A stretch of DNA of 64,000 bases from a virus (Duplodnaviria > Caudoviricetes). The notes under the pieces were generated by a model. It did no database searches. It saw only the letters and a list, made by a program, of their open reading frames with translations, and had not been told where the DNA came from. The stretch's first letter is position 1, and the number at the start of each line of letters is the position of its first letter. Shown in pieces: positions 25,480 to 63,102 of the stretch. The DNA lies in the IMG/VR virus record IMGVR_UViG_2595698222_000001, positions 12,031-76,030 of that record; one strand, written 5' to 3'. The translations under genes and the position numbers were made by a program.

Positions 25480-25777
25480 AAATAGCAATTTAACAAAGTA
25501 TAACTTAGGGTATCACGCACGCAAAGTAATTGATGTTAGCACAATATTAAATAATGTTGCTGATTTAATGGAGGCTGGTTATTATGGTGGCGATCTGGTG
25601 TTACAAGGGTATGCGCCTCCTGACACCTACAATAGTAATTCCTGGGGACTTATACGGTGGGTAGCTGGATCTTCTGGTATAGCTTATTTGCAATTTGTAC
25701 AAGATCGCAGTGCTGCCATTATTACCAGGTCTATTAGTAGGACGGGTAATACGGATACAGGCTGGATATTACATTAA
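25480..25777 (+). other. silent tail-fibre tip cassette 1a (98 aa)
   Basis: starts at AAATAGCAATTT (NSNL); GYY...W..W pattern of fibre knob domains; stop overlaps AAATGATCATTT. Confidence 0.8.
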
Positions 25778-25786
25778 AATGATCAT

Positions 25787-26090
25787 TTAATCCAGTAGCA
25801 CGAATCGAACATAGTAACCAGCATAAATTGCGGCACTTGATTTAATTACGTTAACCTGTAAGGTATTGCAGTCTATCCTCGTTATTCCGTCCATGGTCCG
25901 CAGATCTGACCATGTGCCAGTAGATAACTGTATTTGTGCGGCCAATAGGTATGTATTACCAGATGAACTTCCACTGATGTTAAATAGTTGGTTGGTAGAC
26001 GTATCATTAAATACCCCGGCGGCAGTGCGGATGCGACTTGTGTCAAATTTGTTGTTCAGATTATTACTTACTCCCGCTAAATTGCTATTT
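25787..26090 (-). other. silent tail-fibre tip cassette 1b (100 aa)
   Basis: manual translation NSNLAGVSNNLNNKFDTSRIR...YVRFVLLD*; no start codon. Confidence 0.8.
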
Positions 26091-26104
26091 AAGGAGATCC
26101 ATAA

Positions 26105-26530
26105 ATGAAAGATTATAAGATTTTTATAAACATAACAAAAGAGGTTTTAGATTCCGTGAAACCAGGTGATTTAGTAAAAGTCAACGATTGGAAAAAACCG
26201 TTGAAGGTAATTGCTGTCTCTGATAATTATTTTGTGATGGCAAGGAAATTGTTTGGAGAATGGGAGTATTCGGTTTGTGAAAAGAAACCTTGGGGTGGAA
26301 TAAGATATAACGCAATGATTGGCGGCAAATTTCATATTGGTACAGATGGTTGGGTATTTGGTTCTCCGACATGGATTGATTTTGATTGCGAGGGATATGA
26401 CTTTGATAATTTGGAAGCGTCCCAAGCTTACATAAACTCATTTGAGTTATCAGAGGATAACAGGGATCATTCTTTTATTTCTCCACGCAATGCCGTGCCG
26501 ATAGCCAGTATTTATATTAAGTCAAACTAA
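26105..26530 (+). CDS. phage hypothetical protein
   Basis: AAGGAG RBS directly abutting cassette site. Confidence 0.7.
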   Translation: MKDYKIFINITKEVLDSVKPGDLVKVNDWKKPLKVIAVSDNYFVMARKLFGEWEYSVCEKKPWGGIRYNAMIGGKFHIGTDGWVFGSPTWIDFDCEGYDFDNLEASQAYINSFELSEDNRDHSFISPRNAVPIASIYIKSN

Positions 26531-26636
26531 ACCACGGGTTCCGGCGTGCATGGGAAGCCGGATTAAATGCGGTCAATCAGGTGGTGGCATCTGGGCGTAA
26601 AGCAGCCCGTAACTGAATTTGTGGAGGTAAGTAGAA

Positions 26637-26966
26637 ATGAAAAATTCTAAGGTCATAGCAGCCGATGAAGAAATAATGAAAACTGCTTCAGATACTTTTT
26701 TCAGACAGTTAGTTGAGTGGATGAACAGTGAAAGTATTGAAAACACTGATAGTCTCCAAGATGCTGCTGAGATTGTCCGGAAAGAATTTCTACAGAAAGG
26801 TGACTGGTACAATGCTCTGGTAGATTCCATTGCCCAGTATTTGAGAACCATTCCAGCCAATAAAGGGTTATACAACGTTGCAGAGGAGCTTGCTGATCGT
26901 ATTATCGGAATAGAAAATTTGGAAGGAGATATCCATGGACAAGAAAGAATTGGCAAGGCTCATTGA
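26637..26966 (+). CDS. phage hypothetical protein
   Basis: GGAGG RBS, 109 aa. Confidence 0.65.
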   Translation: MKNSKVIAADEEIMKTASDTFFRQLVEWMNSESIENTDSLQDAAEIVRKEFLQKGDWYNALVDSIAQYLRTIPANKGLYNVAEELADRIIGIENLEGDIHGQERIGKAH

Positions 26967-27327
26967 TGGCCGGGAATATGGCTATGAACCATTCCGGGAC
27001 GTTCGGCAGGCAGCGAAAGAATCTGGTCTGGTTATCGTCAGTGGTGCGTCTGATGACTTGATGGAAATTGACGGCGCTATTTATGATGAGCAGGGTTGTT
27101 TTGAAGGTGGCGTGATATATTTTGACCGTCAAGGTGCATTTGGTAGTGATGGTTATGCTACAAATAAGATTGTAGCCCTCTGGTGCGATAGGTCCGCATT
27201 AGACGAAAACGGAAAAGTTATTACCTGGACGTATAAAACGGATATTCCCCATGAAACTTTTATGATTTATGAGGACGTGGCGCCTTACTGCCGGGGTATA
27301 GTATTTAATTTGGCAGATGTGAAATAG
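26935..27327 (+). CDS. conserved-looking phage protein
   Basis: GASDDLME...WTYKTDIPHETF.IYED..YCRGIVF. Confidence 0.7.
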   Translation: MDKKELARLIDGREYGYEPFRDVRQAAKESGLVIVSGASDDLMEIDGAIYDEQGCFEGGVIYFDRQGAFGSDGYATNKIVALWCDRSALDENGKVITWTYKTDIPHETFMIYEDVAPYCRGIVFNLADVK

Positions 27328-27508
27328 AGGTGAGGGATTTGGTATTTCTGAAATGGATTATTACGGTTTGGCATATATCTATGGCACTATTTATTTGCTC
27401 GACTTCTAGAGGGTTGACTTGGGAAAGGAATAAAGCTGCCGTTATTGGGTTTAGTATTATGGCTATTATGTATGTTCTGGCATTGGTGCCGATTTGGAGG
27501 TGATAGAT

Positions 27509-27814
27509 ATGATGTGTTTCACAGAGCAGCAGAAACAGGAAATTGTACATACAGGAATGCTTGTTGTTGAGTTCAAGAGGTCAGTTGTTAAGGCCAGCGA
27601 AGCCGTGAAAGAGGTATTTGAGTTTGTGAAGGATGTATTGCTGCAGCTGGCAGATAGAACCACTAAAAGGCTACAGGTAATTCATCGGGGATATCAGAAA
27701 TTACCTCTAAAAGAAAAATATAAAGCGGTCCGCAGGCTAGACAAGTGCGGATTCACTGAAAAAGAAATTAACCTGATGGTAGGGGGAACATACCACTGCC
27801 GGAATAATTGTTAG
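27509..27814 (+). CDS. phage hypothetical protein
   Basis: GGAGG RBS before ATG 27509. Confidence 0.6.
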   Translation: MMCFTEQQKQEIVHTGMLVVEFKRSVVKASEAVKEVFEFVKDVLLQLADRTTKRLQVIHRGYQKLPLKEKYKAVRRLDKCGFTEKEINLMVGGTYHCRNNC

Positions 27815-27828
27815 GGAGGAGTTAGAAG

Positions 27829-28083
27829 ATGAAAAACGTAATTGCTATTGTGGTAGCTGGTATTAGCTTTTTATTGTGATTCTACGTTGGTGGCTGGCTC
27901 CTGTTTATACAGCCGATTATATCTGCCGGTCATGCTTTTGACGCCGGTACATTAACTGCAACGATTATTGGCTTGACCATTATCAAGTGTATGCTTGCAG
28001 CTGCTGTGGGTTCAATTATCATTTGGCTTGGATGTACAATAGCTGGGTTCATTCAGCTGATTGGAGGGCGTAAGAGAAAGTGA
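27829..28083 (+). pseudogene. small membrane protein with premature stop
   Basis: MKNVIAIVVAGISFLL*FYVGGWLLFIQP...; in-frame TGA at 27877-27879; frame stays open to 28083. Confidence 0.6.
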
Positions 28084-28367
28084 TTTTTACATATTTCGGA
28101 ATTGTCCTGTTCTTTATCACTGAATGGGCGCAATTCAAAAAGGAACGGCCGACATCAGCTTTCAAGGGCCATGCGTTGTCCTTTGAGGCTGACAGGTCGA
28201 GGCACCCAGTATAGCTGGTGCTAAGCGAAAGATGTGTAACTATAAAATATCTTTGAAATTTTAAATCACTAAGTGCCAAACTTAAAAATTCTTTCGCAGG
28301 CCAATGGCAACGAAGCAATGATGGTAAGTTGCTGAAAAGTCCATCAGAGTGATCAAAATGTACTAAC

Positions 28368-28500
28368 TCCCCATAGCTGAATGCTTGTCAGGGGCCGTCA
28401 CTGGCCCGTGGGGATTTGCCCGGAAACGGGCATTGACGTTTTACTATCCTTTCACCTCATAGCTGTTTGCTGTTAAGGCGGAGCAAATCCGCCGTGAGGT
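28368..28500 (+). ncRNA. two 47-nt tRNA-minihelix-like structured repeats
   Basis: 28368-28414 and 28454-28500: 7-bp closing stem, AGCTG, stacked 5-bp hairpin. Confidence 0.45.
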
Positions 28501-29694: not shown

Positions 29695-29755
29695 AAATTC
29701 ACCAACCATCAATATTCGGTGGTTGGTTTTTTATTGCGAAAATGAGGAGGTTGGA

Positions 29756-31994: not shown

Positions 31995-32006
31995 GGAGGA
32001 TTGATT

Positions 32007-32444
32007 ATGAAATTGACGAGGGAATATTTAGCGACTTATACATATCTAGAATCCGAAATTAAGCGTCTCAGGCGCAGGATAAAATACTATGAGAGTAATC
32101 CGTTGACTTCTGAATATGGGATTGTGAAAGGATCCCTGCAGCAATTTCCATATACGGAATGCCATTTCGTAGTTTCAGGGGCAAATGTGAAATCAAATGA
32201 GGAAAGAGAAAAGGCGGTACGTCAGCTCCTAATTGATTTGAAAGGCAATGAACAACTTTTTGAAGATATGAAACTGGAGATAGAGTGTTTTCTTGAAAAG
32301 CTGGGACCGGAACAGCTGGAGATGAAGCAAATTCTGTATTTTCGATATGTTGAACGATGGTCTTATGATGAGATTGCAAGAGAATTAAATTACGATAGAA
32401 CTACTGTTCAAAAGAAAATTGATAGGTTATTAGACTTAATGTAA
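32007..32444 (+). CDS. ArpU/RinA-like late transcription activator
   Basis: ILYFRYVE.WSYDEIARELNYDRTTV HTH. Confidence 0.75.
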   Translation: MKLTREYLATYTYLESEIKRLRRRIKYYESNPLTSEYGIVKGSLQQFPYTECHFVVSGANVKSNEEREKAVRQLLIDLKGNEQLFEDMKLEIECFLEKLGPEQLEMKQILYFRYVERWSYDEIARELNYDRTTVQKKIDRLLDLM

Positions 32445-32560
32445 TATTATAATTGCATACACATAGTTACCTGAAATGTATTCTATGTATTTTAATATTA
32501 TTGGTATTTTATTTATTGGTAATTTGTGATAAAATTAAGCATTATGGGGGGTGCGAACTA

Positions 32561-34021
32561 ATGAAATTAATGGATTATGAATTTGGTTTCGCTGATGCGA
32601 CAAAGGAGTATATAAGGAAACCAGAAATATTTGAAAATGCTTTTTGTGATACAAGAAACATCGTAGAAAAATTGATTGATGGATATGAATTTTTATTGAT
32701 TGGAAGGAAAGGAGTTGGGAAGTCTGCGTATAGTAGCAAGATTCAATCAATAGCTAAACTTTCCAATACTGAATTAATAGCAAAATTAATGAATTTAAAT
32801 GACTTTGAATTTAGCACATTCGCGAAGACGGGAATTGACAACGATGTTTCAGGAACCCAAAAATATAAGAGTTCATGGGATTTTATATTATTGTTTGCAA
32901 TATATAAAGTATTATTTAATGATTTACAAATGACAGAATCTAGTGCCATAAATGATGTAGTGTTTATGCTTGATCAAGCTGGATTCTCTTTGGATAATGA
33001 ATATAAAACTGATATAGTTCGATTAACAAAAATAAAAATGGGTGTTGGAGTAGTTAATTTTGATGCGGAATTCGAAAAGAAATATAACTCATCTCCAAGT
33101 AATTATTTAGAAAGAATTTCAGTTATAACAGAAAAAATGCTGTATGGAATTTCAGATGCATACTTAAATGAAAGAAAAGTTGTAATTATTATAGATGGCT
33201 TAGATGATGTTTTAAGATATAAAAAAAATAAAGCTGAAATAATATCTAGCCTGATTAGAAGTGTAGACTTTTTAAATGACAAGTGTGCTCAATTTCATAA
33301 AAAAATAAAAATAGTATTACTTATTAGAGAAGATATTATTGCCATGTTAAATGATCCTGATCTAAATAAAATAATACAAGATGGTGCTATTATTTTAAAT
33401 TGGAGCAATCGATTAGAGGAATTAAAGAAAATTGTAGACTTACGATTTCAATTATCAGGTATGTCAGAATCGAATGCTCTGAAGTGTTGGGATAAGATTT
33501 TTCCTCCAAAGATTAGGGGCAAAAGCACATGGTTACATGTCCTAGATCATACACTATATAAACCAAGAGATATTTTGCAATTTCTAAAATATTGCCAAAT
33601 GGAATATCCAAATAATGAAACATTATCACTTTCGGATACACAAAATTCTCTCAAGGTATATTCAAATAAATATTTTATCGAGGAAATGAAAAATGAATTG
33701 TCGGGATTTATTGATGAAGAATTGATATATCTAATACCTACTGTATTTAGAAGATTGGGCGGAAGAGCATTTGATTTAAAAGAGATAGTACGTTTATTTG
33801 ACGAACAATGCAATAAATGTGTTACCGAAGATTCAATTAAAACTTTGTTGCTATATTTATTTGATGCTGGTTACATTGGACAGCTTGTATCAAATGGAAA
33901 TAAGAATGGGACAAAGAGATCAGTGATTTTCAAATATCGTAATCCAACGGCAAGAATTGACTATTATCAAAAATTTATAACACATCAAGGTTTGCATAGT
34001 GGTTTAGGTGTAAGATTGTAA
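32561..34021 (+). CDS. P-loop ATPase moron (candidate defence gene)
   Basis: GRKGVGKS Walker A, IIIDGLDD Walker B, PRD motif; low GC. Confidence 0.8.
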   Translation: MKLMDYEFGFADATKEYIRKPEIFENAFCDTRNIVEKLIDGYEFLLIGRKGVGKSAYSSKIQSIAKLSNTELIAKLMNLNDFEFSTFAKTGIDNDVSGTQKYKSSWDFILLFAIYKVLFNDLQMTESSAINDVVFMLDQAGFSLDNEYKTDIVRLTKIKMGVGVVNFDAEFEKKYNSSPSNYLERISVITEKMLYGISDAYLNERKVVIIIDGLDDVLRYKKNKAEIISSLIRSVDFLNDKCAQFHKKIKIVLLIREDIIAMLNDPDLNKIIQDGAIILNWSNRLEELKKIVDLRFQLSGMSESNALKCWDKIFPPKIRGKSTWLHVLDHTLYKPRDILQFLKYCQMEYPNNETLSLSDTQNSLKVYSNKYFIEEMKNELSGFIDEELIYLIPTVFRRLGGRAFDLKEIVRLFDEQCNKCVTEDSIKTLLLYLFDAGYIGQLVSNGNKNGTKRSVIFKYRNPTARIDYYQKFITHQGLHSGLGVRL

Positions 34022-34164
34022 AAAGGGATTCCCCGGACATGCCGGACGGGAATCCCTAAAAGTAGCTACTCTTTCATAGTATATCTTGAATATATATGAT
34101 TTATTCAAAGATTGCAAGTCCTTTTTTTAAAAAGTGATATTTTTTGATTTAGAATTGGTGAAAC

Positions 34165-34204
34165 ATTCCCACAATTCCCATTTCTAATATGATAAAATGA
34201 TATC
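34165..34204 (+). promoter_or_regulatory. late-promoter-like motif, copy 1
   Basis: ATTCCCACAATTCCCATTTCTAATATGATAAAATGATATC; 35/40 identical to 50003-50042. Confidence 0.65.
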
Positions 34205-36739: not shown

Positions 36740-37297
36740 ATGAAAAATATCATTAGGCTACCACTAATAACAATATTATTAATAACAATATTTTCTTTTA
36801 ATGCATTCGCCATGAATAATGAATACATTGCACCTGAACGGCAAACACCATTAAACGAAAAAAGGAATGAAGATCGTTCACTTGATTTTAGATGGACCTG
36901 GATAAGTGATGATTCATGTGTTCGATTTAGAACAAATGAAAACGTAAATAAAGCTAGAATTGATAAAATGTATGAATTAGGAGCATTGCCACAGTGGGCA
37001 GAAGACGGAAAAGATGGTTATGGAGTTGTTAAAAAACGATATACCTATTCTGGAAAGTGGGTACAAGCTGCAGATGGTATCTGGTCTTTTTTGTTTGATG
37101 ATTACACAATTCCAGTAGGTGTAACACTAATTGATGGCGTACTGTATGCATTTAACACCTATGGAGAACTGAAAGCTGATTATGAGTACTATGATGGTTT
37201 AAAAACTAAGGCAGACGGCTTGGTAAAAGCGGACAGTGCAGAATTTACCCAATGGCTCACAACTCAGTATCTTCCAGAATGTACAAGCCACGAATAA
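36740..37297 (+). CDS. secreted protein moron
   Basis: signal peptide ending AFA; W.FLFDD...YAFN..G cell-wall-repeat-like segment; own promoter and terminator. Confidence 0.65.
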   Translation: MKNIIRLPLITILLITIFSFNAFAMNNEYIAPERQTPLNEKRNEDRSLDFRWTWISDDSCVRFRTNENVNKARIDKMYELGALPQWAEDGKDGYGVVKKRYTYSGKWVQAADGIWSFLFDDYTIPVGVTLIDGVLYAFNTYGELKADYEYYDGLKTKADGLVKADSAEFTQWLTTQYLPECTSHE

Positions 37298-38121
37298 GAG
37301 GTTGCAAGCAAGGAGCAGTAGATTTTCCCCTGCTCCTTTCCTATGTCAAGAAATGAACAGTGGTTTTTAGAGTGAGAGGATTATAATTTGATTAAGTCCT
37401 CGCCTATTCATTATTTGCCATAAATTTAGGGAGATTGATTGAACTGGTTATGAAATCAGAAGGAGCATGTTAATTGCTACGGTCCTAAAACCTGTTTTTC
37501 AACAGACCAGATACAGGATTGTTTTATTAAGGTTCCTATTTACGAACAGTTAACTATGTTCAGTGAAATCATTACAAGATATTAAGGAGGACATACATAA
37601 GTATGAATACATATGTAAAGCTGGAAGTGAAGCAACTATTGACACATCTGTGTTTTGCAAGGACTTTAAAGAAAAAAACATGAAAATATTTCTGTGGCCC
37701 CGAATTGTATCTGTATGCGTTCCATATATCCCAGCGGCTTTATTTTGGAAGTGAAAGAGCATGCAGAAAGGGTTATTATAAGGACTAACCGTGAGTTGAT
37801 TGATAACGATAATGGGGGCTTTTTGTGTTTCTGAAGAGTGATTCAGATAAAAATACAAATGGAGAGCGAGGATTGATTCCTCGCTCCTTTTGTATGCCTT
37901 TTGTATTGCAAAACGTCAAAATACTATTAAATTTAAATTTCAAAAGGCCTTTTGAGTAAAAACTATTTGAAAAACGTATGTTCTTATAGTATGGTCATAT
38001 TGTAAGAATAAATGAAAAAGCTACATTCTAAGTGGCAAGTGGGGTTTGTTAGCGATACTAAATAAACTCAAAAAGCTTTTACACTTACAGAAAATAAAAA
38101 CGCAAAGGAGAAGATATTACA

Positions 38122-38334
38122 ATGATTGATAATGTGAAAAACGTGGAAGAGGCTGTTAAACTGGCAAAACGGACAACTTGCAATGATCTTTTATTTGTTG
38201 CAGGCATGGCAAGGTTTTATAATTGCAAGCCATTGAATATGGAGAGGGACGATTTTCTTCTCTTTTTAAGTACACTTTACCATTATGGAAAGATTCAGGG
38301 AATACGACAGGAACGAGCAAAGAGAAGAAATTGA
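38122..38334 (+). CDS. hypothetical protein
   Basis: AAGGAG RBS; G..QGIRQERA C-terminus. Confidence 0.55.
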   Translation: MIDNVKNVEEAVKLAKRTTCNDLLFVAGMARFYNCKPLNMERDDFLLFLSTLYHYGKIQGIRQERAKRRN

Positions 38335-38783
38335 ATGACAACATTTTAGTGGTTGTCGATTATTTAGCAAAATTAGCTGACAACAATTTTGTGGTGTGTG
38401 GTTATTCCTTTGACTGACCAGAAAACTCTAAGGAATAGTGAAGTGAAGGACATTTTCCCGTCACCGTATTTACTGAAGCGAAAATTCGCCTTAGTAAGCT
38501 CACATCAAAAAGATAGTGGTTAATAATGATAAATATACGGATTTTTAACGATGGACAAATGTCCGTGGTTGATTATTTTAATGGTGAAAGCTAAAGAGTA
38601 CTGGCTTGGAAATGGGTTATGAGGTCAAAAAGATATTTGATGCCAATTACGGTGAGGTAAATACATATCATCGTGAAGTTTGGGAAGCGGTTTATCCCGA
38701 ATATGAAATTTAATAAAGTAATGAGTTTAGAAAGAGCGTCCTTAACCGGACGTTCTTTTTCTACGCCGAAAGGAGGAAATAAC

Positions 38784-39985: not shown

Positions 39986-41038
<1,053 letters not shown>

Positions 41039-41042
41039 TCAC

Positions 41043-41298
41043 TTATACGATTGTGGTTGTTCCTGTACTGACGTCATTAAACGATCCGTCCGGATTGACC
41101 GTAAATGTGAAATTGCTCAAATATAGGTGGTTATCCCTTATGCCAAGTCTTGTAGCGGTACCTGTGGCAAAATTACGTGATGTAATATATGTTCCGGTAG
41201 CATCGTTATAGATAGTCGATCTTAATGTATTTTCGCTATTAATTAAACTCATAGACTTCTGTACACCACTACCAAACAGTCCAACTAAATTGCTATTT
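41043..41298 (-). other. inverted alternative tail-fibre tip cassette 2b (84 aa)
   Basis: NSNLVGLFGSG...TTTIV*; site at 41287-41298 inverted relative to 40681. Confidence 0.85.
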
Positions 41299-41376
41299 AG
41301 TAGAAAAGAGAAACTTAAAAACTGGTCCCTCATAGGGGCTTATTTTATTGCCTGAATACGGGCGGAAAGGAATCTT

Positions 41377-41805
41377 ATGAGTATTGAAAAAATCAAATTC
41401 GGTGATCAGGTATTCGACCTGGTGCCCGCAGGTGTAGATCTTGTAGATGGTGGAGGAACCATCAAATTTCTGATGGGAGAAAAGCGCTTTGAGGAGATCG
41501 AAACCATCCTGCAGGCCAATAGTACCATCAAGCAGATTGCCCGATCAGGCGATACAGACTGGTCGCGATCTGATCTGGTTTATGGTGATTTTGTATCAAG
41601 AGATGCCAACTATGTAATAGGTACGGCGGATGATGGTGTAACCGTCATTACGGCCGCTGTAATGATTGCCACGTTCCGTACACCAGATTTACGCGAAAGG
41701 GTAACAGCACTGGAAAAAGAAAATGAGAATATCAAAAAGGAAAATGCAGCAATGAAAGAAAGTTTAGGAACTCTGATTTTAAATAACTTAGAGGAGGTTA
41801 AATAA
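41377..41805 (+). CDS. tail-fibre-associated protein
   Basis: position after fibre; C-terminal coiled coil. Confidence 0.6.
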   Translation: MSIEKIKFGDQVFDLVPAGVDLVDGGGTIKFLMGEKRFEEIETILQANSTIKQIARSGDTDWSRSDLVYGDFVSRDANYVIGTADDGVTVITAAVMIATFRTPDLRERVTALEKENENIKKENAAMKESLGTLILNNLEEVK

Positions 41806-45091: not shown

Positions 45092-46381
45092 TTAAAAGGA
45101 CAACTTCTGGATGTAATATTGAGTATTAATAATAAACCACATTTGGGTATCAAATCTCATAATAGTCCAGAGAGATAAACCTTGAAGATCATATTCTGCT
45201 ACCAGCCCGGCTCTTGCCTCAAAACTTCTCGCATCATTAAACCACACTAAGTGAAGAATCCCGTCACTATCCATATAATAGAAAAAAGGTGACTGTGCTG
45301 CTTCGTTAAATTGTATTGGTATATTGTTATCTGCTGCAATCTGTATTGCATTATTGTTTGCTATAGCAGTTGCTTCTGTTGCACCCGGAACATAGGGTAG
45401 TGTCCAATCATAACCGAGTGTAGTGATTCCTAAGAATAATAATTCGAGTGGAATAATACTGGTTACGTAGTCTAATAGTTCTCTTAAAACATTAACCGGA
45501 AAAATTGAACTTGGGTAACTATAAAATCTAGCCCAATCATAAGAAGCAAATAGAATCCCATCTACATATCCAGATAATCGTGAATAATCCAACTTTTCAA
45601 AGCTGACAATAGGCCCCTGAATATTCATAATTGGCGTTGTGGTTATTAGTACTCTATAACCTTCAGAACGAAATATAGCTGAAGCCTTTTTAATGTATTC
45701 TACAATACTGTTTATGTTATCCGGTGTAATATCTTCGATATACATATTCACTCCATAATAACCCTTTGTTTTTACCATTTGAAGAATATTATCAATAAGA
45801 CGATCTTGCACAGAAGAGTTATTTAAAATATTCTGAGTTACTTCACGAATAATAGTTCCTTCTTCCGTAATCGTAGAAACAAACATCATGGGCGCAACAC
45901 CATAAGTTTTAGCCAACTGAATTACATCAGAATCGTCAGCAATAGTAATAATTTCTCCTTCACTTGTAGCCCTATAATTGAATATAGTCAAATATGTTAA
46001 AAAAGGGAGCGTTTTTATTAAAACAGATTTATCTATATATGAAAAAGTATAACCACTAGTGGCAATTGTTCTTGTTTTGTTAGTTTGATAGCTTAAGACT
46101 ATCGTTTCACCGGCATACAAAAATTCTCTGTCAGAAAGATAGGGATTATTTCTTAATAAAGCCATTGGCGTAGTACCATGCTGCTCTGCAATACTCTCCA
46201 AAGTATCGCCGGGTTGGACAACATAGAGTGTTTCTGGCTGTACAATCACGATAGTTTGACCAATTGCTAAATTGCCAGGGTTTGTAATTCCGTTTTCCAA
46301 TATTAAACTGTCAACTGGGATTTTATAATAATCTGATATTGATTTTATGGTTTCACCGGGTTGGACAACATGTATGATCAT
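45092..46381 (-). CDS. LysM-LysM-GH18-like spore peptidoglycan hydrolase
   Basis: two HVVQPG/YVVQPGD LysM domains; GH18-like barrel with GYDW; catalytic DxDxE appears degenerate (NMYIE). Confidence 0.8.
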   Translation of the reverse strand: MIIHVVQPGETIKSISDYYKIPVDSLILENGITNPGNLAIGQTIVIVQPETLYVVQPGDTLESIAEQHGTTPMALLRNNPYLSDREFLYAGETIVLSYQTNKTRTIATSGYTFSYIDKSVLIKTLPFLTYLTIFNYRATSEGEIITIADDSDVIQLAKTYGVAPMMFVSTITEEGTIIREVTQNILNNSSVQDRLIDNILQMVKTKGYYGVNMYIEDITPDNINSIVEYIKKASAIFRSEGYRVLITTTPIMNIQGPIVSFEKLDYSRLSGYVDGILFASYDWARFYSYPSSIFPVNVLRELLDYVTSIIPLELLFLGITTLGYDWTLPYVPGATEATAIANNNAIQIAADNNIPIQFNEAAQSPFFYYMDSDGILHLVWFNDARSFEARAGLVAEYDLQGLSLWTIMRFDTQMWFIINTQYYIQKLSF

Positions 46382-46554
46382 GGAATCCCTCAAATGATCT
46401 TATTAATACTATTATATGCTAATCTTACATGTTCATAACATCATAATGTAGATATAATACTAGCGGCCTGGGCGGGCAGCCAGGAGCATACCAAGCCATC
46501 CACTATTGATTTTTCGAACGTTCGTGCCGATTCCAAATACTCCCATATGTTTTC

Positions 46555-46737
46555 CTATCTATTGTAATACTGCTCAAACCATCGTGGTTTTCTCATATAT
46601 TCAGCTTTTTCTTTCGTTTCCTTACCAGACTCCCTAAAAAATCCGCAGCTTGTATGATCGGCTCCGCAACCTTCTTTATCTCTAATGTAATGGGGGCAAT
46701 GGTTAATGTCCTCCGCGAGCCCACAATTTCCTAACAT
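46555..46737 (-). CDS. small Cys-rich protein
   Basis: own GAGGTG RBS; in frame with truncated lexA. Confidence 0.5.
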   Translation of the reverse strand: MLGNCGLAEDINHCPHYIRDKEGCGADHTSCGFFRESGKETKEKAEYMRKPRWFEQYYNR

Positions 46738-46844
46738 GCTAACACCTCGATTGTCTGTTCTGTTAATGGTGGAAATAAAAGGAGGGAAGCACTGTGGCTT
46801 CCCAATTCTTGTTAATGAATGCCTACTCTGAATAATCCAATTGT

Positions 46845-47385
46845 CCATTGAATCGTTTTCTGGTTGCAGGCGGTAATGACTCTTTTCTTTAAAAAACCGT
46901 TTTACTGTAGCCGAGTCATCGACCAGTGCATCAACAATATCCCCATTATGCGCAGTTGCTCGGTATTCTACGATAATCTGATCGCCTTCAAGAATACCTG
47001 CGTTGACCATACTGTTTCCTTTAACTTTTAATATAAAGGTCTCTGCATTTGGAAGTAATTCAGCTGATATGGGATAATAGTTCTCAATGTTTTCCTCTGC
47101 ATAAAGAGGCAGTCCGGCCGCTACGGTTCCGAGGAGCGGAACGTTCACAACCTCCCGGCGTGTCAGCTGGAAACAATCGTCTATGATTTCAATGGATCTT
47201 GGCTTAGTTGGGTCTCTTCTTATGTATCCCTTTTCCTCGAGAATCGACAAATGAGAATGGACGGAAGAAGTTGATTTTAAATTAACTGCTTCACATATTT
47301 CTCGGACCGATGGGGGATAGCCATTCTTTAAGATTGATTTTTTTATATACTCTAAAATTTCCTTTTGGCGTTCTGAAATGTCCAC
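46845..47385 (-). pseudogene. lexA: LexA repressor copy, C-terminally truncated/fused
   Basis: GYPPSVREI wHTH, VAAG cleavage site, GNSM Ser, TVKRF Lys; homology ends at LQPENDSMD. Confidence 0.75.
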
Positions 47386-47506: not shown

Positions 47507-47824
47507 GTGATTAAGATGATGGATACTATATCCAAGGATTTATATAGTAAAGTTATGAAGGCCCAATATCAGATGATTGAAGCTTTTTTAGATTATGTGA
47601 ACTATGAAGATGAAATAGCAGACGGTTTGACAGGAATGTCATATATATTATTTTGTGAAAACATTCCATTTTCTTTTGATGGGCAATGCATAGCGGTACC
47701 TGATTTTGGATTAAAAATATCTTCTGGAGAAAAAGAGAAATTATATGTTGAATTTGAAAATGTAAAGAAATCCGAATGTTATCCTGCAGAGGTCTATAAT
47801 AAATATTTAGAAAAGAGAAAATAG
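47507..47824 (+). CDS. hypothetical protein
   Basis: 105 aa; stop codon TAG lies inside the cassette site. Confidence 0.6.
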   Translation: MIKMMDTISKDLYSKVMKAQYQMIEAFLDYVNYEDEIADGLTGMSYILFCENIPFSFDGQCIAVPDFGLKISSGEKEKLYVEFENVKKSECYPAEVYNKYLEKRK

Positions 47825-47981
47825 CAATTTGAATAATACGAAATCGGCCCTAACAACTACTCAGGCAAACATCGATACCCGTATTCCGTCTCGAATCGCT
47901 TTCCGATGGAATGATGGAGGAGCCCTACAGCTCTACATAGATGGTGTCTATTATGCATCGATAGAATTTATTGATAAATGA
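47819..47981 (+). other. silent tail-fibre tip cassette 3a (53 aa)
   Basis: NSNLNNTKSALTTTQANIDTRIPSRIAFRWNDGGALQLYIDGVYYASIEFIDK*; stop inside TAAATGATCATTTA. Confidence 0.8.
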
Positions 47982-47985
47982 TCAT

Positions 47986-48301
47986 TTACTGTAGTGTAAT
48001 AGGTGATCTGAGTATGCACCAGAATACTTTTAAACTTTCGGAGGCGAAACTTGGGCTTGTGTTATAGGCCATCAATCTAAATCCAGCTGGGGTTAAAGAG
48101 ACGGCACTTATCTCTACGTCTGCCCACCCAGCCCCCATACCCCCTTTACTTAAAAGTATGGCGTAATTATCATCTGATAGGGGCGTGCCAAACGGGATGT
48201 CATAAATTGCGCTGCCAAGTGGTTGTAATGCGCTTACAGTGTAAGACCAGTGCTGTGCATTTTTTGCCAAATTATTACTTAGGTTATTTAAATTGCTATT
48301 T
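47986..48301 (-). other. silent tail-fibre tip cassette 3b (104 aa, lectin/gp53-like)
   Basis: NSNLNNLSNNLAKNAQHW...IPFGTP...TPAGF...VFWCI. Confidence 0.8.
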
Positions 48302-48370
48302 AATTAATTATGAAGGTAGTAGACAAAATAAAAAAAGACCACTTATAAGCAGTCTTTCTTATCACTTGGT

Positions 48371-48571
48371 TTATGCAATTTGAACATTAACAGCCTGTAA
48401 TCCACGATTACCTTCTGTTACATCAAATGTTACAGACTGACCATCGTCTAAAGACTTATAGCCGTCCATAGCAAGACCTGAGAAATGAACGAAAATTTCG
48501 TTACCCTGCTCGTCAGCGATAAAACCAAATCCCTTTTGTGCATTAAACCATTTTACTGTACCTTTATTCAT
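48371..48571 (-). CDS. cspA: cold-shock protein
   Basis: [18 protein letters not shown]...FVHFS; AAGGAGG RBS. Confidence 0.95.
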
Positions 48572-49075
48572 GAAAGATACCTCCTTAAATATTAATATTG
48601 TATTTTTGCTAAAACTAAAAATCGCATATATATGTAAATCATCAATAGAATAATGACTTACGTATATATGCGAAATCAAGACCTTATTTAAATACCTATC
48701 TATCTTAACACAATGGTTTAAATAAGTCAAGAAAAACTTGCAAAGAAGGCCACATTGAAAAAATCATCAAAAAAAGCACAACGCAAAGCGGGAAAGGTGT
48801 TCCAGGCTTAGAATATTGGGAGATTAGTTTATAAGGTAATCAAGTGATTAGTTAAGTCTCGACTAACCACCAGATACCTTGGGAGATCCACCTTACTGGT
48901 GATTATTTCTATTTTTTATATTTTACTATAAATTCACGTTGGCTTTGCATTAAAACAGATCTTATCTGTGGGGAAAATAATGATGGAAATATTGGTTAAT
49001 ATAGTTGAAATGGTTTTGACATGCTGATAAGGGATGATAATGAATTGCATTTGATAAATGTAAAATGGTTTAGGA

Positions 49076-49570
49076 TCATTGTTCATAGATAAATGGGATA
49101 ACTTCTTCACGCTTAATGTTCAATACATAAGCGAACTCCTCACAAAGTGTTTTTTCAGCATCTTTGAGAAAGCATTCGTCAGAATCCTGTAGTTTCTTGT
49201 CTTTATTTGTGCTTTTTAGCTCTTGTTTACGACTACGCAAAGTTTTTATCATTTCTATAAGTTCGGAACGGTTACCATCTGCAAGAACCTGGCCGTATAA
49301 TTCTTTGCGCTTTCGATTATCCTTTATCCAATTGTGGTCTTTACTCGACAATTTCTTGACTAGAAAGAAAATTTCATCGGCAGAAAGAATGTGGCGAATT
49401 TCAGTTTTTCTTCTGTCACTTATAGCTGAGACGTATAATGTCGAGGCAGTATGGTAAACAGGCTTGAGCACGTAATATGGGCGGATTTTTTCATCCATGC
49501 ACATATCCTGTAATCCGGTAACCCTACAAACACCATGACTTCCGTATATGATGACATCACCTATGTTCAT
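49076..49570 (-). CDS. CarD-family transcriptional regulator
   Basis: IGDVIIYGSHGVC...YYVLKP...EEFAYVL. Confidence 0.85.
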   Translation of the reverse strand: MNIGDVIIYGSHGVCRVTGLQDMCMDEKIRPYYVLKPVYHTASTLYVSAISDRRKTEIRHILSADEIFFLVKKLSSKDHNWIKDNRKRKELYGQVLADGNRSELIEMIKTLRSRKQELKSTNKDKKLQDSDECFLKDAEKTLCEEFAYVLNIKREEVIPFIYEQ

Positions 49571-49775
49571 AATATTTCACCTCTTTCTAATAAAATAAAA
49601 AGTGCGGTTCACTAAAACTGGACTTACGTCCCTGTAAAGCAAACCACACGTTCGATATTTATATTATAGCACAATTGTAGATGAAATGTATACGGTAATT
49701 TACTCCAAAGTTCACGACTATATCATGGGCTTATCTATTTAGTATTTTCCGGAGTGCCGGGAGAAAGGTGGAATT

Positions 49776-49976
49776 ATGAAAGTGTGGAATAGAAAATATG
49801 ATAATGATCACAAAGAACTAGAAGAGAAGATAATGGTAAAAGACCAATATAACAGAATGATGATGATAAGAGTTGCGAAGAAATACAATCTGGACGATCA
49901 GATCAATACAAGAATTGAATTAGAATATCACAGTAGTAAAAATTATGAAGTTTCTATATCGGATCTACTAAATTAA
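49776..49976 (+). CDS. hypothetical protein
   Basis: 66 aa; stop overlaps a lone AAATTGCTATTT site. Confidence 0.5.
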   Translation: MKVWNRKYDNDHKELEEKIMVKDQYNRMMMIRVAKKYNLDDQINTRIELEYHSSKNYEVSISDLLN

Positions 49977-49986
49977 ATTGCTATTT
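49975..49986 (-). repeat. lone cassette-type site without cassette
   Basis: exact AAATAGCAATTT on minus strand; frame closes immediately (NSNLI*). Confidence 0.6.
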
Positions 49987-50002
49987 TAGAATAGACCTCA
50001 AG

Positions 50003-50042
50003 ATTCCCACATTTCCCATTCATAATATGATAATATGGTATC
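50003..50042 (+). promoter_or_regulatory. late-promoter-like motif, copy 2
   Basis: ATTCCCACATTTCCCATTCATAATATGATAATATGGTATC upstream of portal. Confidence 0.65.
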
Positions 50043-57953: not shown

Positions 57954-57967
57954 TCTGGGAACAGTAT

Positions 57968-58363: not shown

Positions 58364-61300
58364 ATGTCAGATGTTATTGATGATTTAAAAGTCCAAATAG
58401 ACGCCAGTACAAATAGTGCTGATGCCAAAATTGATAAATTCATACAAAAGATGATGTCTCTGCAATCTGCCATATCCGGGATTGAAATGTCCGGTGCAAG
58501 TCAGGTGGCCTCTGGCATAAATCAGATTGCTTCATCTATCCAAAGCTTTAATGAACGGACTAAAACTGCGGATTTTTCCAGAATAACCGTAGGGCTTAAT
58601 AAACTGTCGGCGGTTGACGTTCAGGGAGTAAGCAATACCGCTCACGCCATGGAAAGCTTTGCAAATAGTATAAATGGAATTGGTAATCTCAAATTTGATA
58701 CGGAAACTCTGAATAATATTGCAAATTCCATTTCAAAGCTGGGACGTGCTTCGGTTACGGAGGCAACACAGAATCTGGAATTTTTAAAAACCAGTATGGC
58801 AGATTTTGTTTCCGGAATGAACAATGTGGGAAGTCTGAATTTTAATCCGGATTCTCTATATAAACTGGTGTCCTCAATAAGTAGGTTGGGTGGTATTAAT
58901 GCCACACAGGCGGTAAAGAACCTTCCGCAGATTTCAACCTCCCTGCACAGTTTTGTTTCCAGTATGAATTCTGTTGGCGGTGTCACGTTTAATATTGAGG
59001 GACTTAATTCTCTTGTGAACAATATTAGCCACCTTGGTGGGGCAAAAGCTACACAGGCCACAGCAAACCTTAAGCCAATAAAGGACCAGCTTTTAAGGTT
59101 TGTGAGTGGTCTGAACGGGATAGGTGCGCTCAATTTTGATACAAGTGGGTTGGAAAATCTCGTTTCTTCTATAACAAAGCTGGGTGGAAAATCTGCAAGC
59201 AATGCAATTCCTAATATTCAGAACCTTGGAATATCCTTAAGAAATCTGATGGCCACTCTGTCCAGTGCCCCACGGGTCAGCAATAATCTTATTCAAATAA
59301 CAAATGCTCTGGCAAAATTGGCTTCCAGTGGTTCCAAAGTGTCAAGTGCCAGCGTTGCAATGAGTAATGGTTTGAAATCGTACACAGGTCGGACGGGAAA
59401 AGCCATGTTAGGAATAAAGGGGCTTGCAGCGTCTATTGGAATGTTCTACGCCAGATGGTGGGCGGTAATTCGTGGAATGAAAGGTCTATGGAAAGCAACG
59501 GAAGCTTCTATGGACTATATTGAGACATTGAATTATTTTGACGCCGCCTGGGGGCAAGTAGCAGATGCCGGGGTAAAAAACTGGGAGAAGTCTGGCTATG
59601 AATCAGCAGAAGCCTATGCCAAATCATTCAGCAAACGTGCACAGGAATTAACGGGGAAAATGTCCGGCTTCATGGCAGATGAGAATGGGAATTTAAAATC
59701 TACCGGTGCGGTTAGTCTTGGTATTGATCCAGAAAGGCTTATGAATTATCAGGCTACTTTTGGTCAGATGGCTTCCTCTATGGGAGTAGCCTCTGAAACG
59801 GCCCTGCAGCTATCTAACGCTTTAACTATGATAGGTGCAGATCTTGCTTCCGTAAAGAACTTGAATTTCAAAGATGTATGGGAGGATATGGCTTCCGGCA
59901 TGGTCGGCATGAGTCGGACTCTAGATAAATACGGCGTAAATATCCGCAATGTAAATTTGCAAGAAAAATTAAGTGAACTTGGTATTATGGCAAAGGTTTC
60001 GGCTCTAAATCAGCAGGACAAGGCCTTATTACGTGCCATTATCTTATTGGATTCCACTCGGTACGCCTGGGGAGATTTGGCTAGCACTTTAGACGCGCCT
60101 TCAAACCAGTTACGACTTCTACAATCAAATTTTGCGAACCTTGCAAGGACGATAGGGAATTTATTTCTGCCTATTGTTGCCAAGGTTCTTCCTTATATTA
60201 ATGCTCTGGTAATAGCATTACAGCGGTTATTCTCATGGGTCGGCGGACTTTTGGGTATTAAGGTAGGGGATTTCAGCTCTTCTATTGGTTCTGCCGCCAC
60301 AGACTTTGGAGATATGGAAGATGCAGCAGATGGGATTGCAGATAGCACAGGAGATGCAGCGAAAAATACTAAAAAGATGGCAGACAATTTACAAGGTTTT
60401 GATAAATTAAATGTCGTAAGCTCAAAAGATTCTTCTGGTGGTAAAGGTGGTAGTGGCGGCGTCGATGGAGGTTTATTAGATGAAGCTTTTTTGAACTCTT
60501 TGTCCGAATATCAGAAAGTTTGGGAAGCTGCATTTGCAAATGTGGAAAATAGTGCACAGGCAATGGCTGATAAAATTGTAAATGCATTTAAGGTCGGTGA
60601 TTATTACGGTATAGGAAAATACATAGGAGATGGCTTAACAGGGGCTTTAGAAAGTATAAGCTGGTCTGCAGTTTATTCTATTGCGGGTGGATTCGGTACG
60701 GGATTGGCAGAATTTTTAAATAGCCTTATTTCGCCTGAATTGTTTGGGGCAGTAGGTAAGACGATTGCAGGGGCTTTAAATACTGCTCTGTATACCGCGC
60801 TTGCTTTTGGCATAGCTTTTGACTGGACGAATCTGGGATATTCTAGTGCCAATGGAATTAACAATTTTTTCAATACATTTGACTTTGCTTCTGCCGGAGC
60901 GGCGGTTAACGTCTGGGCTAAAGGTCTGTTAGACGCATTAATAGAGGCACTGGATAATATAAACTGGTCTCTAATAGGAACTAAAATTGGAACATTCCTT
61001 GAATCTATAGATTTCATTGAAATAGGTGGAAAAGTAGGGGAAGCAATATGGAAAGCCATAAATGCAGGTATAGAGCTTTGGGGGAGTTCTTTTAAGACAG
61101 CACCTGTTGAAACGACAATGCTTACAGCATTTGGTCTGCTGAAATTCACAGGACTTGGAAAGTTGTTGTCTGGGAAAATAATGCGATCACTGGCTAAAGG
61201 ATTGTCTTTCTCTGGAATTGGAACATTACTAGTAAAAGCATTTCCTAGAAGCACTATTATAACCACGATAACTACAACTATGGCTCAAACTGGTGCTTCT

Positions 61301-62731
61301 TTACCATCAGTATTGTTTGGTGTGATATGGGTACCTATACAGACTTTTTTCACTACAACATTACCTGGATTAATAGGTGGAGCAATAAGTGGTTTAGGTG
61401 CAAGCATTGCCGGTGGAATAGCAGCATTGGCCGCAGCTCTTGGAATAAGCGTAACTGCCGCAGCTGCACTTGTGGTAGGTGTAGTTGTTGCAGCTATAGC
61501 CACAGTAGTATATGCTTTTACACATTGGGATGAAATTAAAGAATTTTGGACAAAGAAAGTTCCTGAATGGTGGAACACTTCCGTGTTGCCTTTTTTTGAA
61601 TCTATTCCAGATAAACTCTCTGCAGTGTGGGATAAGGTAAAGTCTACAGCTACTTCTTCATGGGATAAATTGATTCAATATCTGACTGGCATACCGGGGA
61701 AAATAGGAAATATTGTTACAGACATCGCTGATTGGTTTAATGAATTACCTGGGAAGATTGGATATGCTTTAGGGTATGCTCTGGGAACCATTACAAAATG
61801 GGGCTTAGAAGTAGCAGAATATATGGCTAAGAAAATCCCCGAAATAATAGCTTCTGTGGTAAAATGGTTTTCTGAAATGCCTGGGAAGATATATACTGGA
61901 ATTTCTACCTTTATAACAAATGTTGCAACCTGGGGAACAGAAATTTACAATGCATTTAACCAAAAAGTATCTGAAATAATTGTCGGCACTGTGAAATGGT
62001 TCTCTGAAATGCCCGGGAAGATATACGATACAATAATAAAAATCAAAGAGAAAATATCAACATGGGCCACGAATACCGTATCATTTTTTAAAACAGAGGT
62101 TCCTACTATTGTAGATAAGGTGATAGAATTCTTTGGAGAATTACCGAAGAAAATGGTTACTATAGGCGAAAATGTCATTAAAGGTCTATGGGAAGGTATT
62201 ACGAATTTGACGGACTGGCTGGGAACTGGTATCGCCTCTTTTACTAAAGGCGTAATTGATGGGTTTAAAAAAGGCTTTGATGAACATTCTCCCTCGAAAA
62301 AAGCGTTCCAGATTGGTGATTATTTTACCATCGGAATGATGAATGGTATTGAGGATAAATTTGGTGTAATTTATTCTAAAGTAGATTCTTTTGCTGACAA
62401 ACTAACAGATTATAATATTTCTCTGCCATCAATAGATACCAACGTACAAGTCAGCAGGGAATTCTTTGATATGGTAGATACAAAAGCCTCTGTTTCCTAC
62501 GATACACCTTCTTATGATTTTAAGGCCGGCATATCCGCAGAATTGCATGCAGCGTTATCTGGAATTATTGATTATGAGAAGATGGCAAAGACTATGGCAC
62601 CGATTGTAGCTGATGCGTTAGAGCATGCAGATATAAAAGCAAAGATTGGTCAGCAAGAAGTTTGGAAAAGTACAAAAGATAGTTGGAATCAGGATTATAG
62701 AAAGTTAAAAAAAGCACCAGTACCAATTTGA
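58364..62731 (+). CDS. tape measure protein
   Basis: 1455 aa, Ala/Gly-rich helical repeats with periodic W/F. Confidence 0.9.
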   Translation: MSDVIDDLKVQIDASTNSADAKIDKFIQKMMSLQSAISGIEMSGASQVASGINQIASSIQSFNERTKTADFSRITVGLNKLSAVDVQGVSNTAHAMESFANSINGIGNLKFDTETLNNIANSISKLGRASVTEATQNLEFLKTSMADFVSGMNNVGSLNFNPDSLYKLVSSISRLGGINATQAVKNLPQISTSLHSFVSSMNSVGGVTFNIEGLNSLVNNISHLGGAKATQATANLKPIKDQLLRFVSGLNGIGALNFDTSGLENLVSSITKLGGKSASNAIPNIQNLGISLRNLMATLSSAPRVSNNLIQITNALAKLASSGSKVSSASVAMSNGLKSYTGRTGKAMLGIKGLAASIGMFYARWWAVIRGMKGLWKATEASMDYIETLNYFDAAWGQVADAGVKNWEKSGYESAEAYAKSFSKRAQELTGKMSGFMADENGNLKSTGAVSLGIDPERLMNYQATFGQMASSMGVASETALQLSNALTMIGADLASVKNLNFKDVWEDMASGMVGMSRTLDKYGVNIRNVNLQEKLSELGIMAKVSALNQQDKALLRAIILLDSTRYAWGDLASTLDAPSNQLRLLQSNFANLARTIGNLFLPIVAKVLPYINALVIALQRLFSWVGGLLGIKVGDFSSSIGSAATDFGDMEDAADGIADSTGDAAKNTKKMADNLQGFDKLNVVSSKDSSGGKGGSGGVDGGLLDEAFLNSLSEYQKVWEAAFANVENSAQAMADKIVNAFKVGDYYGIGKYIGDGLTGALESISWSAVYSIAGGFGTGLAEFLNSLISPELFGAVGKTIAGALNTALYTALAFGIAFDWTNLGYSSANGINNFFNTFDFASAGAAVNVWAKGLLDALIEALDNINWSLIGTKIGTFLESIDFIEIGGKVGEAIWKAINAGIELWGSSFKTAPVETTMLTAFGLLKFTGLGKLLSGKIMRSLAKGLSFSGIGTLLVKAFPRSTIITTITTTMAQTGASLPSVLFGVIWVPIQTFFTTTLPGLIGGAISGLGASIAGGIAALAAALGISVTAAAALVVGVVVAAIATVVYAFTHWDEIKEFWTKKVPEWWNTSVLPFFESIPDKLSAVWDKVKSTATSSWDKLIQYLTGIPGKIGNIVTDIADWFNELPGKIGYALGYALGTITKWGLEVAEYMAKKIPEIIASVVKWFSEMPGKIYTGISTFITNVATWGTEIYNAFNQKVSEIIVGTVKWFSEMPGKIYDTIIKIKEKISTWATNTVSFFKTEVPTIVDKVIEFFGELPKKMVTIGENVIKGLWEGITNLTDWLGTGIASFTKGVIDGFKKGFDEHSPSKKAFQIGDYFTIGMMNGIEDKFGVIYSKVDSFADKLTDYNISLPSIDTNVQVSREFFDMVDTKASVSYDTPSYDFKAGISAELHAALSGIIDYEKMAKTMAPIVADALEHADIKAKIGQQEVWKSTKDSWNQDYRKLKKAPVPI

Positions 62732-62737
62732 TTTAAG

Positions 62738-62779
62738 GGCCATAGACTCTTCCAATGTGGATAGCCTATGGCCTTTTTT
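62738..62779 (+). terminator. intrinsic terminator after tape measure gene
   Basis: GGCCATAG/CTATGGCC stem followed by T6. Confidence 0.7.
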
Positions 62780-62791
62780 GTTTTATTATTA

Positions 62792-63074
62792 AAATAGCAA
62801 TTTAACCGCTTTAGGCGATAACCTTGGTGGCAAGAAAACCATTTCCGGGGTCACTGAGGTAACCCTTGATGCCAATGGATACGGCCTAGTTAATTTTGGC
62901 TATGTGTTTGCCAACACCTACACTAATGTTATTATTAGTAACAATACGGGGTTGTATTTCCAGTACGAAATCTACCCTGGAGGTTTTGGCGTGTGGGTAT
63001 TTGATGCAAATGGAACAAAGCTAATTAATACGAAAATCTGGGTCACATGGATAGCTCATGGGACGGCAAAATGA
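62792..63074 (+). other. silent tail-fibre tip cassette 4a (93 aa, gp53-like)
   Basis: manual translation NSNLTALGDNLGGKKTISG...VNFGYVF...VTWIAHGTAK*; stop inside AAATGATCATTT. Confidence 0.8.
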
Positions 63075-63102
63075 TCATTTAATATTTTTTGACAAGTGAT
63101 TC

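Follow-up and report, generated by a model that had tools for sequence, protein, structure and literature searches.

Tip cassettes and two short sites of the prophage

The DNA analyzed here, referred to as the window, is a stretch of 64,000 nucleotides from a Caudoviricetes virus record (IMG/VR IMGVR_UViG_2595698222_000001, positions 12,031 to 76,030) and is part of a large prophage in a Firmicutes-type genome of 5.27 Mb. It carries a collagen-like tail-fiber gene, whose constant part ends at position 40680 and to which a tip cassette, 2a, is fused in frame at a short site termed A. Further tip cassettes are stored tail to tail in pairs, and the two members of a pair meet at a palindrome termed B. 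Here, we describe the conservation of B and the re-assortment of the cassettes on its two sides, and we weigh whether A and B are crossover sites at which single tips are exchanged.

The 12-bp A site, AAATAGCAATTT, encodes NSNL and is present in nine exact copies in the window, four on the plus strand and five on the minus strand (Table 1). Nine copies compare with 1.74 expected (matches with up to one mismatch), and none of 100 shuffles reached this number. The complete genome contains 11 copies of the 12-mer, the two outside the window (genome positions 150359 and 747105) being without a cassette frame. Only the copy in the fiber gene, reading L-N-S-N-L in frame, is located inside a long open reading frame (ORF), and each of the eight other copies, found in both orientations, opens an NSNL frame without an upstream gene part. 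The locus is therefore made up of one expression site, seven silent tips (giving four tail-to-tail pairs), and one lone A site. The pairs, at 25.5, 40.7, 47.8, and 62.8 kb, are spread over 37 kb at operon borders. A terminator-like hairpin, the only such one, follows the whole of pair 2 at 41324-41340.

Of 36 genomes sampled from the same genus, 35 contain the A 12-mer, and many of the matches form convergent pairs 400-900 bp apart, a reversed-pattern control giving 0-3 per genome. At two loci of relatives (L018 in G029 and L017 in G033, near 280-335), the shaft ends in three heptad-like repeats, (I/V)NSNLDN. The repeats give tandem A sites, 21 bp apart, so that the A site belongs to a repeat naturally present in the coding sequence of the shaft.

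The lone A site is separated by a 1673-bp block from the directly repeated A site of cassette 3b. This block is absent from the related prophage G019, in which the A site of the full pair abuts the same downstream sequence as the lone A site of the window; on the right, the slot ahead of the portal operon originally ended at the lone site. The block looks like a circle inserted at an A site, and its place between two direct copies suggests that the same sites may also capture cargo.

B is located at the center of all four window pairs, in three of them exactly as AAATGATCATTT and in pair 2 as the variant GAATGATCACTT. In the whole genome there are four exact copies, of which three are those in the window, each between a convergent A pair, and the fourth (genome position 120041) is without a surrounding cassette frame. 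B is not enriched as such, since 12 window matches at two mismatches compare with a chance mean of 10.8; its signal consists of exactness and position. A and B share AAAT....ATTT, and only the four central bases differ (AGCA versus GATC). The stop codons of the cassettes fall on B in several ways: that of 1a (TAA, 25775-25777) overlaps its first base, those of 2a, 3a, and 4a are TGA at B positions 4-6, and those of 1b, 2b, and 3b are TAA over its last two bases. Cassette 4b stops early, at 63105-63103, 22 bases before B, and has a second in-frame stop, 63081-63079, on it. An earlier sequence-only reading of this DNA had placed a palindrome at each pair's center, three times exact and once as a variant, had noted the stops of seven of the eight cassettes in or over it, with a second stop of 4b there, and had assigned to it the arms of the 5' site with a different core. 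All of this was found again on checking the positions and reading the two sites directly (AAAT-AGCA-ATTT versus AAAT-GATC-ATTT).

Table 1. Coordinates of sites, cassettes, slots, and genes in the window
Feature	Position	Strand	Remarks
A site, cassette 1a	25480-25491	+	exact AAATAGCAATTT
A site, cassette 1b	26079-26090	-	exact match
A site, cassette 2a	40681-40692	+	in frame in fiber gene
A site, cassette 2b	41287-41298	-	
A site, cassette 3a	47819-47830	+	
A site, cassette 3b	48290-48301	-	
Lone A site	49975-49986	-	no cassette behind it; reads NSNLI-stop
A site, cassette 4a	62792-62803	+	
A site, cassette 4b	63275-63286	-	
B site, junction 1a/1b	25777-25788		exact AAATGATCATTT
B site, junction 2a/2b	41033-41044		variant GAATGATCACTT
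B site, junction 3a/3b	47976-47987		exact AAATGATCATTT
B site, junction 4a/4b	63069-63080		exact AAATGATCATTT
Silent tip cassette 1a	25480-25777	+	98 aa after L codon
Silent tip cassette 1b	25787-26090	-	100 aa
Silent tip cassette 2b	41043-41298	-	84 aa
Silent short tip cassette 3a	47819-47981	+	53 aa
Silent tip cassette 3b	47986-48301	-	104 aa
Silent tip cassette 4a	62792-63074	+	93 aa
Silent short tip cassette 4b	63103-63286	-	60 aa; same short class as 3a
1673-bp insert	48302-49974		cold-shock and CarD-like genes; between direct A copies 48290-48301 and 49975-49986
Collagen-like tail-fiber gene, expression locus	39986-41038	+	350 aa; Pfam Collagen, E 3e-13
Slot 1			after gene 24808-25257
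Slot 2			expression site
Slot 3			upstream of portal operon; 43-base repeat recurs at 50000
Slot 4			after tape-measure gene
Slot 5			directly upstream of 43-base repeat at 34162; empty in window
Xer-like tyrosine recombinase, candidate enzyme	15207-16244	+	345 aa; PF00589 2.8e-29, SAM-like N domain
SNF2 fused to N6/N4 methylase, two C5 methylases, one D12 Dam-like methylase	7457-10024, 11162-12904, 16712-17734, 17786-18547		D12-class adenine methyltransferase is 17786-18547
Terminase	from 30294		Pfam/PHROGs scans of window ORFs
Amidase endolysin	from 43897		
SPP1-type portal	from 50232		
Capsid protein	from 52764		
ORF taken as tape-measure protein	58364-62731		1455 aa; basis is size and place after capsid genes

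Conservation of B and re-assortment of cassettes

Conservation of B was assessed in 36 distinct pairs chosen by A sites alone, four of them located in the window and the remaining 32 in one viral contig and 14 further genomes. Identical pairs (L154, L064, L060, L259, L262, L266, L269, L277, and L284) were counted once, and L019 and L020 of G009, whose A sites enclose unrelated genes and are separated by 2.9 and 1.6 kb, were excluded from the pair counts. The compared genomes are kin rather than independent samples. The best match to AAATGATCATTT had no mismatch in 15 pairs, one in 12, two in 7, and three or four in 2. B with at most two mismatches was present in 34 of the 36 pairs, placed at the junction where both cassettes end, and a match with at most one mismatch was observed in 27 of 36, compared with 0.5% of shuffled cassette sequences. 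A reverse search of viral and metagenome collections for A, a gap of 246-276 bases, and the B core returned 30 loci; in 21 of these, found by A and B alone, a second, inverted A site was detected in the expected place, and some of the other nine are chance matches (e.g., L281). Having been selected for B, these loci were left out of the B statistics. An earlier metagenome scan with a 31-base stretch of cassette 2a gave no match.

Neither coding nor RNA structure nor a terminator accounts for B. The C-terminal residues differ between cassettes, whose ends fall in three different frames relative to B. About three-quarters of the cassettes end at a TAA or TGA offered on either strand by the consensus T-AAATGATCATTT-A, and the remaining ones stop earlier yet keep B. 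Folds of 60 nucleotides at the four sites (z = -0.8, -1.3, -1.0, and +0.5) were no better than those of shuffles, and an Rfam search of the window gave no match. A terminator at B was ruled out, the hairpin of pair 2 being located behind the whole pair.

The partner of a cassette changes frequently between relatives. In the family analysis, 98 cassettes of 49 distinct pairs fell into 78 families at 60% identity, 15 of them with more than one member. The partner belonged to a different family in 23 of the 27 same-family comparisons and was the same in 4, which came from two pair types. The family of cassette 1b was seen with four different partners, and the cassette families X, Y, and Z were found in all three pairwise combinations. 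Homology ends sharply in such cases. Cassette Z in two G023 prophages is 98% identical from A to B, compared with 29% upstream of A and 23% beyond B, and the expressed cassette 2a matches a silent, inverted cassette of G015 at 97% identity, compared with 29% and 26% outside. The flanking phage genes of the window and G015 are only 71-79% identical. In the comparisons of L004 with L007 and of window pair 2 with L148, identity was 97-98% from A to B and 22-31% outside both sites. The sequence-only reading had predicted re-assorted partners in relatives and had named inheritance of partners always together as the outcome speaking against it; the 23 comparisons with different partners, and homology that ends inside B and at A, bear out the prediction.

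Variants of the outer half-sites of B give the position of some of these breaks. The half GAATGA accompanies family X (cassette 2a) in four contexts with three different partner halves, and the half TAATGA accompanies family Z in two contexts. Since the outer variants stay with their own cassette, those breaks fall in the central TGATCA. Across the 23 re-assorted comparisons, the cassette's own half was identical in 17 and the partner half in 6. By reasoning rather than computation, recombination at A alone cannot split a pair, because no A site lies between its cassettes.

Judged by these comparisons, tips are A-to-B modules, which are swapped one at a time without net rearrangement. A ratio of nonsynonymous to synonymous substitution rates (dN/dS) was obtained for 11 of 14 cassette comparisons, silent cassettes among them, and was 0.06-0.37; silent cassettes are thus under purifying selection. 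No cassette family was found twice within one prophage among the six prophages compared, which fits reciprocal exchange better than copying.

The places in which pairs are stored were compared with those of related prophages. Five of these (G019, G023 contig 42, G015, G027, and G035) are collinear with the window, an inverted inter-slot segment was found in none of the five, and their slots hold different cassettes. The same gene order with different slot contents fits an exchange without net genome rearrangement, as the sequence-only reading had suggested. One cassette family can occupy different slots in different phages. In a metagenome contig, the flanks of slot 4 are 94-99.5% identical to those of G019 but enclose other cassettes, one of them 95% identical to a slot-2 cassette of G019.

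Two late operons are headed by a 43-base repeat (34162-34204 and 50000-50042, 86% identical). The repeat directly follows a cassette pair in relatives, which places the slots at borders of transcription units. The repeat may be a promoter for the phage sigma-like proteins encoded at 16232-16603 and 32001-32444. An ORF of 522 amino acids (aa) at 32453-34021, with weak STAND/AAA NTPase matches and in a low-GC stretch (0.30), stands where G015, G027, and G023 contig 42 have a cassette pair; it could be a defense gene that replaced a slot.

Candidate recombinases, proposed exchange, and alternatives

The 345-aa Xer-like protein is encoded by the only recombinase gene in the window. It scored below the cut-off of all NCBIfam Xer models, and integron integrase models gave 53 bits versus a cut-off of 265. 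Pfam and PHROGs scans of 50 window ORFs detected no further recombinase and none beside the expression locus. The serine recombinase family PF00239 had five matches in the genome, none of them in the window, and none was found on the related G023 prophage contigs. A host serine recombinase (203 aa, genome positions 5112208-5112819), small and conserved, was considered and set aside, its surroundings showing no link to the system. Orthologs of the 345-aa enzyme with at least 85% identity were found in 8 of 36 congeners and homologs with 43-45% identity in three more (E <= 1e-40; E <= 1e-20 for G023, G020, and G005). A different tyrosine recombinase of 191 aa, presumably of about the size of a FimB/FimE-type invertase, was detected in 8 of 36 congeners (E <= 1e-15), among them G023 (contig 42, L026:2224-2796), G015, G018, G019, G025, and G012; about 1.5 kb separates its gene, which is on the opposite strand, from slot 1 in relatives. 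Relatives encode either of the two proteins or both. With the thresholds used, the 15 congeners with verified pairs comprised seven with a homolog of the 345-aa protein, two with only the 191-aa protein, and six with neither.

A closer association was seen in G024, in which a 340-aa Xer-like recombinase, 27-28% identical to that of the window, is encoded directly between two A-cassette-B units with perfect B (L168, G024:C1:3602500-3605500). The two units are nearly identical, and their partner cassettes start with the variant motifs LNSDL and LNNKL, from which it appears that other A-site classes may exist. The enzyme is thus probably of the Xer-like tyrosine recombinase kind.

In the reading that we favor, with a probability of roughly 0.55, A and B both serve as places of crossover in conservative site-specific recombination, and the enzyme is most likely an Xer-like tyrosine recombinase. 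The 5' end of each cassette would be an A site, providing the in-frame joint to the fiber shaft, and its 3' end would be half of B (AAATGA), so that two cassettes tail to tail make AAATGA-TCATTT. Inversion between two A sites would join the shaft to another tip, and recombination between two B sites would re-pair the cassettes. If the second reaction followed the first at the same two slots, the intervening segment would be turned back, and the net outcome would be that a single tip has changed places from one slot, or one phage, to another while the order of the genome is kept. As a near-palindrome with one asymmetric position, A has a direction, and B would have to be a perfect palindrome because any cassette should be joinable tail to tail with any other.

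We infer an enzyme that would act at B, would probably be Xer-like, would not recombine A with B, and would work in the two steps described. The expectation that different cores or spacers do not cross-react comes from Cre and Flp. It would hold equally, by analogy, for a serine recombinase, with central GC in A and AT in B. No A/B hybrid 12-mer occurred in 671,525 bases of related loci containing 173 A and 31 perfect B sites, which is weak evidence of non-cross-reaction since hybrids would break cassettes and be lost. A more detailed version of the proposal, in which a single small Xer-like recombinase would use two kinds of non-cross-reacting minimal 12-bp sites, the directional A and the palindromic B, and would move tips singly among five slots, the expression site, and co-resident phages with gene order restored, is tentative, its odds falling a little short of even.

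Several points weigh against recombination at A and B by a dedicated enzyme. The conserved part of these sites is 12-14 bp long, compared with the core sites of about 30 bp of Cre, Flp, and Xer. B is the only sequence that pairs share, so any recombination needing a few bases of homology would break there. Co-segregation of half-sites was informative in only two families, and the cassette's own halves differ in 6 of the 23 re-assorted comparisons. Of the 15 congeners with verified pairs, 8 gave no match to the recombinase of the window, and 6 of these 8 also lack the 191-aa protein. The latter was not found in the present genome (G000) either, the window having a 450-bp gap at its place. The sequence-only reading had proposed a natural form of recombinase-mediated cassette exchange (RMCE); single-cassette borders at both sites and re-assorted partners support the exchange itself, but the candidate recombinase of the window is not consistently linked to the pairs. 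Finally, no B x B event within one population was seen in the public runs, which were analyzed as assembled contigs.

These runs contained several variant contigs. In run X5, a contig of depth 6.9 (main contigs, about 120-160) links the flank 41376-41592 to a segment with B, cassette 3b, and the A site of this cassette, and another departs from the window at 41041, inside B. In run X9, the start of cassette 2a is inverted next to the flank 41376-41592, as in G015. Contig joints or loose ends in the public runs fall at 40680, 41041, and 48301/41376. All of these contigs, joints, and loose ends may come from other strains and were not counted as switching within a population. Draft contig ends near A in G012 and G015 were discarded as a sign of switching, since repeats explain them equally well.

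The foremost alternative holds that B is a conserved junction element with another job, such as binding a dimeric protein, carrying a Dam-type GATC mark, or offering a two-frame stop module on both strands, and that rare short-homology recombination re-assorts cassettes, with selection for new tips keeping the products. Homology-dependent events would indeed map to B, the only sequence common to the pairs, and no recombinase is consistently linked to them. B also gives TAA and TGA on both strands, in which most cassettes end; stop codons, however, need three bases and not a palindrome of 10-12 bases kept across 15 genomes, and cassettes that stop early keep B. Methylation of B is conceivable, given the GATC within it and the D12-class methyltransferase encoded in the window. 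The outer eight bases shared with A, in turn, point to one recognizing protein for both sites, twelve bases are very short for RecA-type exchange, and units of 97-98% identity end cleanly at A as well as B. On balance, we consider this alternative unlikely.

It is quite improbable that B is a nuclease cut site, at which copy-and-paste gene conversion from silent donors is initiated as in pilin or mating-type switching. Remote silent donors and a single expression site do resemble antigenic-variation layouts, and the TGATCA palindrome is of a kind cut by restriction-type nucleases. Copying should, however, duplicate cassettes, and no family occurred twice in any of the six prophages; moreover, no nuclease gene adjoins the pairs among the ORFs scanned, and the homology available for repair on the B side is only about 12 bp. 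Although seven of the eight window cassettes end in or on B, the idea that B is only a set of overlapping stop codons, or a functionless relic of the pairs' common descent, is hardly credible and already contradicted by the differing C-terminal residues and frames, by a 12-mer kept across 78 cassette families, and by its frequency in pairs relative to shuffles.

Prophage setting and relation to known systems

A probable integrase is encoded 12 kb upstream of the window. The tape-measure candidate had no significant Pfam match. An ORF following pair 2 (41377-41805) resembles XkdW/YomQ-type tail proteins, by weak atlas leads only, and no solved structural relative of it was found. A single-sequence AlphaFold2 model of tip 2a had a predicted local distance difference test (pLDDT) score of 37.5 and was unusable.

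Other parts of the prophage differ between relatives or carry repeats. The minus strand at 45092-47385, between the lysis genes and pair 3, encodes a LysM plus GH18 protein as well as a LexA-like repressor, in a region that varies between related prophages. The stretch 37300-38600, about 1.3 kb, is without an ORF longer than 102 aa and without an Rfam match; homology to related prophages ends at 37297 and is back near 38734. Promoter- and terminator-like elements are repeated (6159-6206 and 12917-12964; 6839-6880, 13513-13554, and 29701-29742) and flank small inserted genes, such as that for a GNAT acetyltransferase at 6250-6789. In G010 (L014), where a gene has been inserted next to the B site of a cassette pair, the same promoter-like element precedes that gene. 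In a metagenome contig (L279, 1-7607), a cassette pair and the genes following pair 2 are joined directly to DNA that matches, at 94% identity, the host sequence lying 12-16 kb upstream of the window, about 53 kb of prophage being missing.

Phage host range is set by fiber tips, and the known switches flip whole segments in one block. In the R64/IncI shufflon, the tyrosine recombinase Rci and sfx sites serve to vary the C-terminal segments of pilV. Both there and in the prophage described here, short repeated sites serve as in-frame joints between a constant gene part and its alternative C-terminal segments, convergent pairs are stored between inverted sites, and the enzyme is, or is likely to be, a tyrosine recombinase. 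The shufflon trait of several C-terminal segments behind the same short site in both orientations is present in the window. The R64 segments, however, form one block beside rci, whereas the pairs described here are located at 25.5-62.8 kb and the recombinase gene at 15.2 kb. We know of no crossover site in a shufflon where two convergent segments meet.

The phage inversion systems Gin (Mu), Cin (P1), and Min (p15B) likewise fuse a constant fiber part to alternative convergent tips and switch host range. They employ serine invertases acting on sites of about 26 bp with an enhancer, and no serine recombinase is encoded in the window. Integron cassettes (IntI, attI/attC) are comparable in being single promoterless units between sites, which move singly and are expressed at one site. 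Long imperfect attC palindromes and an array behind a promoter, both characteristic of integrons, are absent here, and the cassettes of the prophage differ in being gene fragments that are fused in frame and stored tail to tail.

The closest layout is that of the Rin shufflon of Bifidobacterium prophages, in which each of the variable C-terminal genes of a receptor-binding protein is preceded by an 11-bp asymmetric repeat, and the invertase Rin is a predicted armless Xer-like tyrosine recombinase (PMC6109161). Cassettes of the Rin system lie together in the interval from the constant gene to rin, in contrast to the dispersed ones described here, and the passages of that report considered here mention neither a second palindromic site separating the cassettes nor remote storage (PMC6109161). 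Novel features of the present system are a conserved second site in the middle of the pairs, borders of single cassettes at that site, and dispersed slots at operon borders. A full-text literature search for the three 12-mers returned no bacterial or phage paper, and keyword searches, which did not extend to supplements (e.g., the tables of PMC9881135, which may list such loci), yielded no account of a central site where convergent tip cassettes meet.

Engineered RMCE with heterospecific lox or FRT sites resembles the arrangement in the prophage in its logic, a cassette lying between sites with shared arms and different cores. It differs in that its sites are 34 bp long, compared with 12-14 bp for the putative natural sites, one of which is a perfect palindrome without direction. 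RMCE leads one to expect a swap of the cassette alone, and the comparative pattern matches this exactly: single tips have moved among slots that are far apart and among phages whose hosts are different species, with the rest of the genome untouched. If an enzyme drives these movements, nature would have its own version of engineered cassette exchange. The lasting usefulness of silent tips stored at a distance from the fiber gene would then be explained, and genome engineering could gain very small orthogonal recombination sites.

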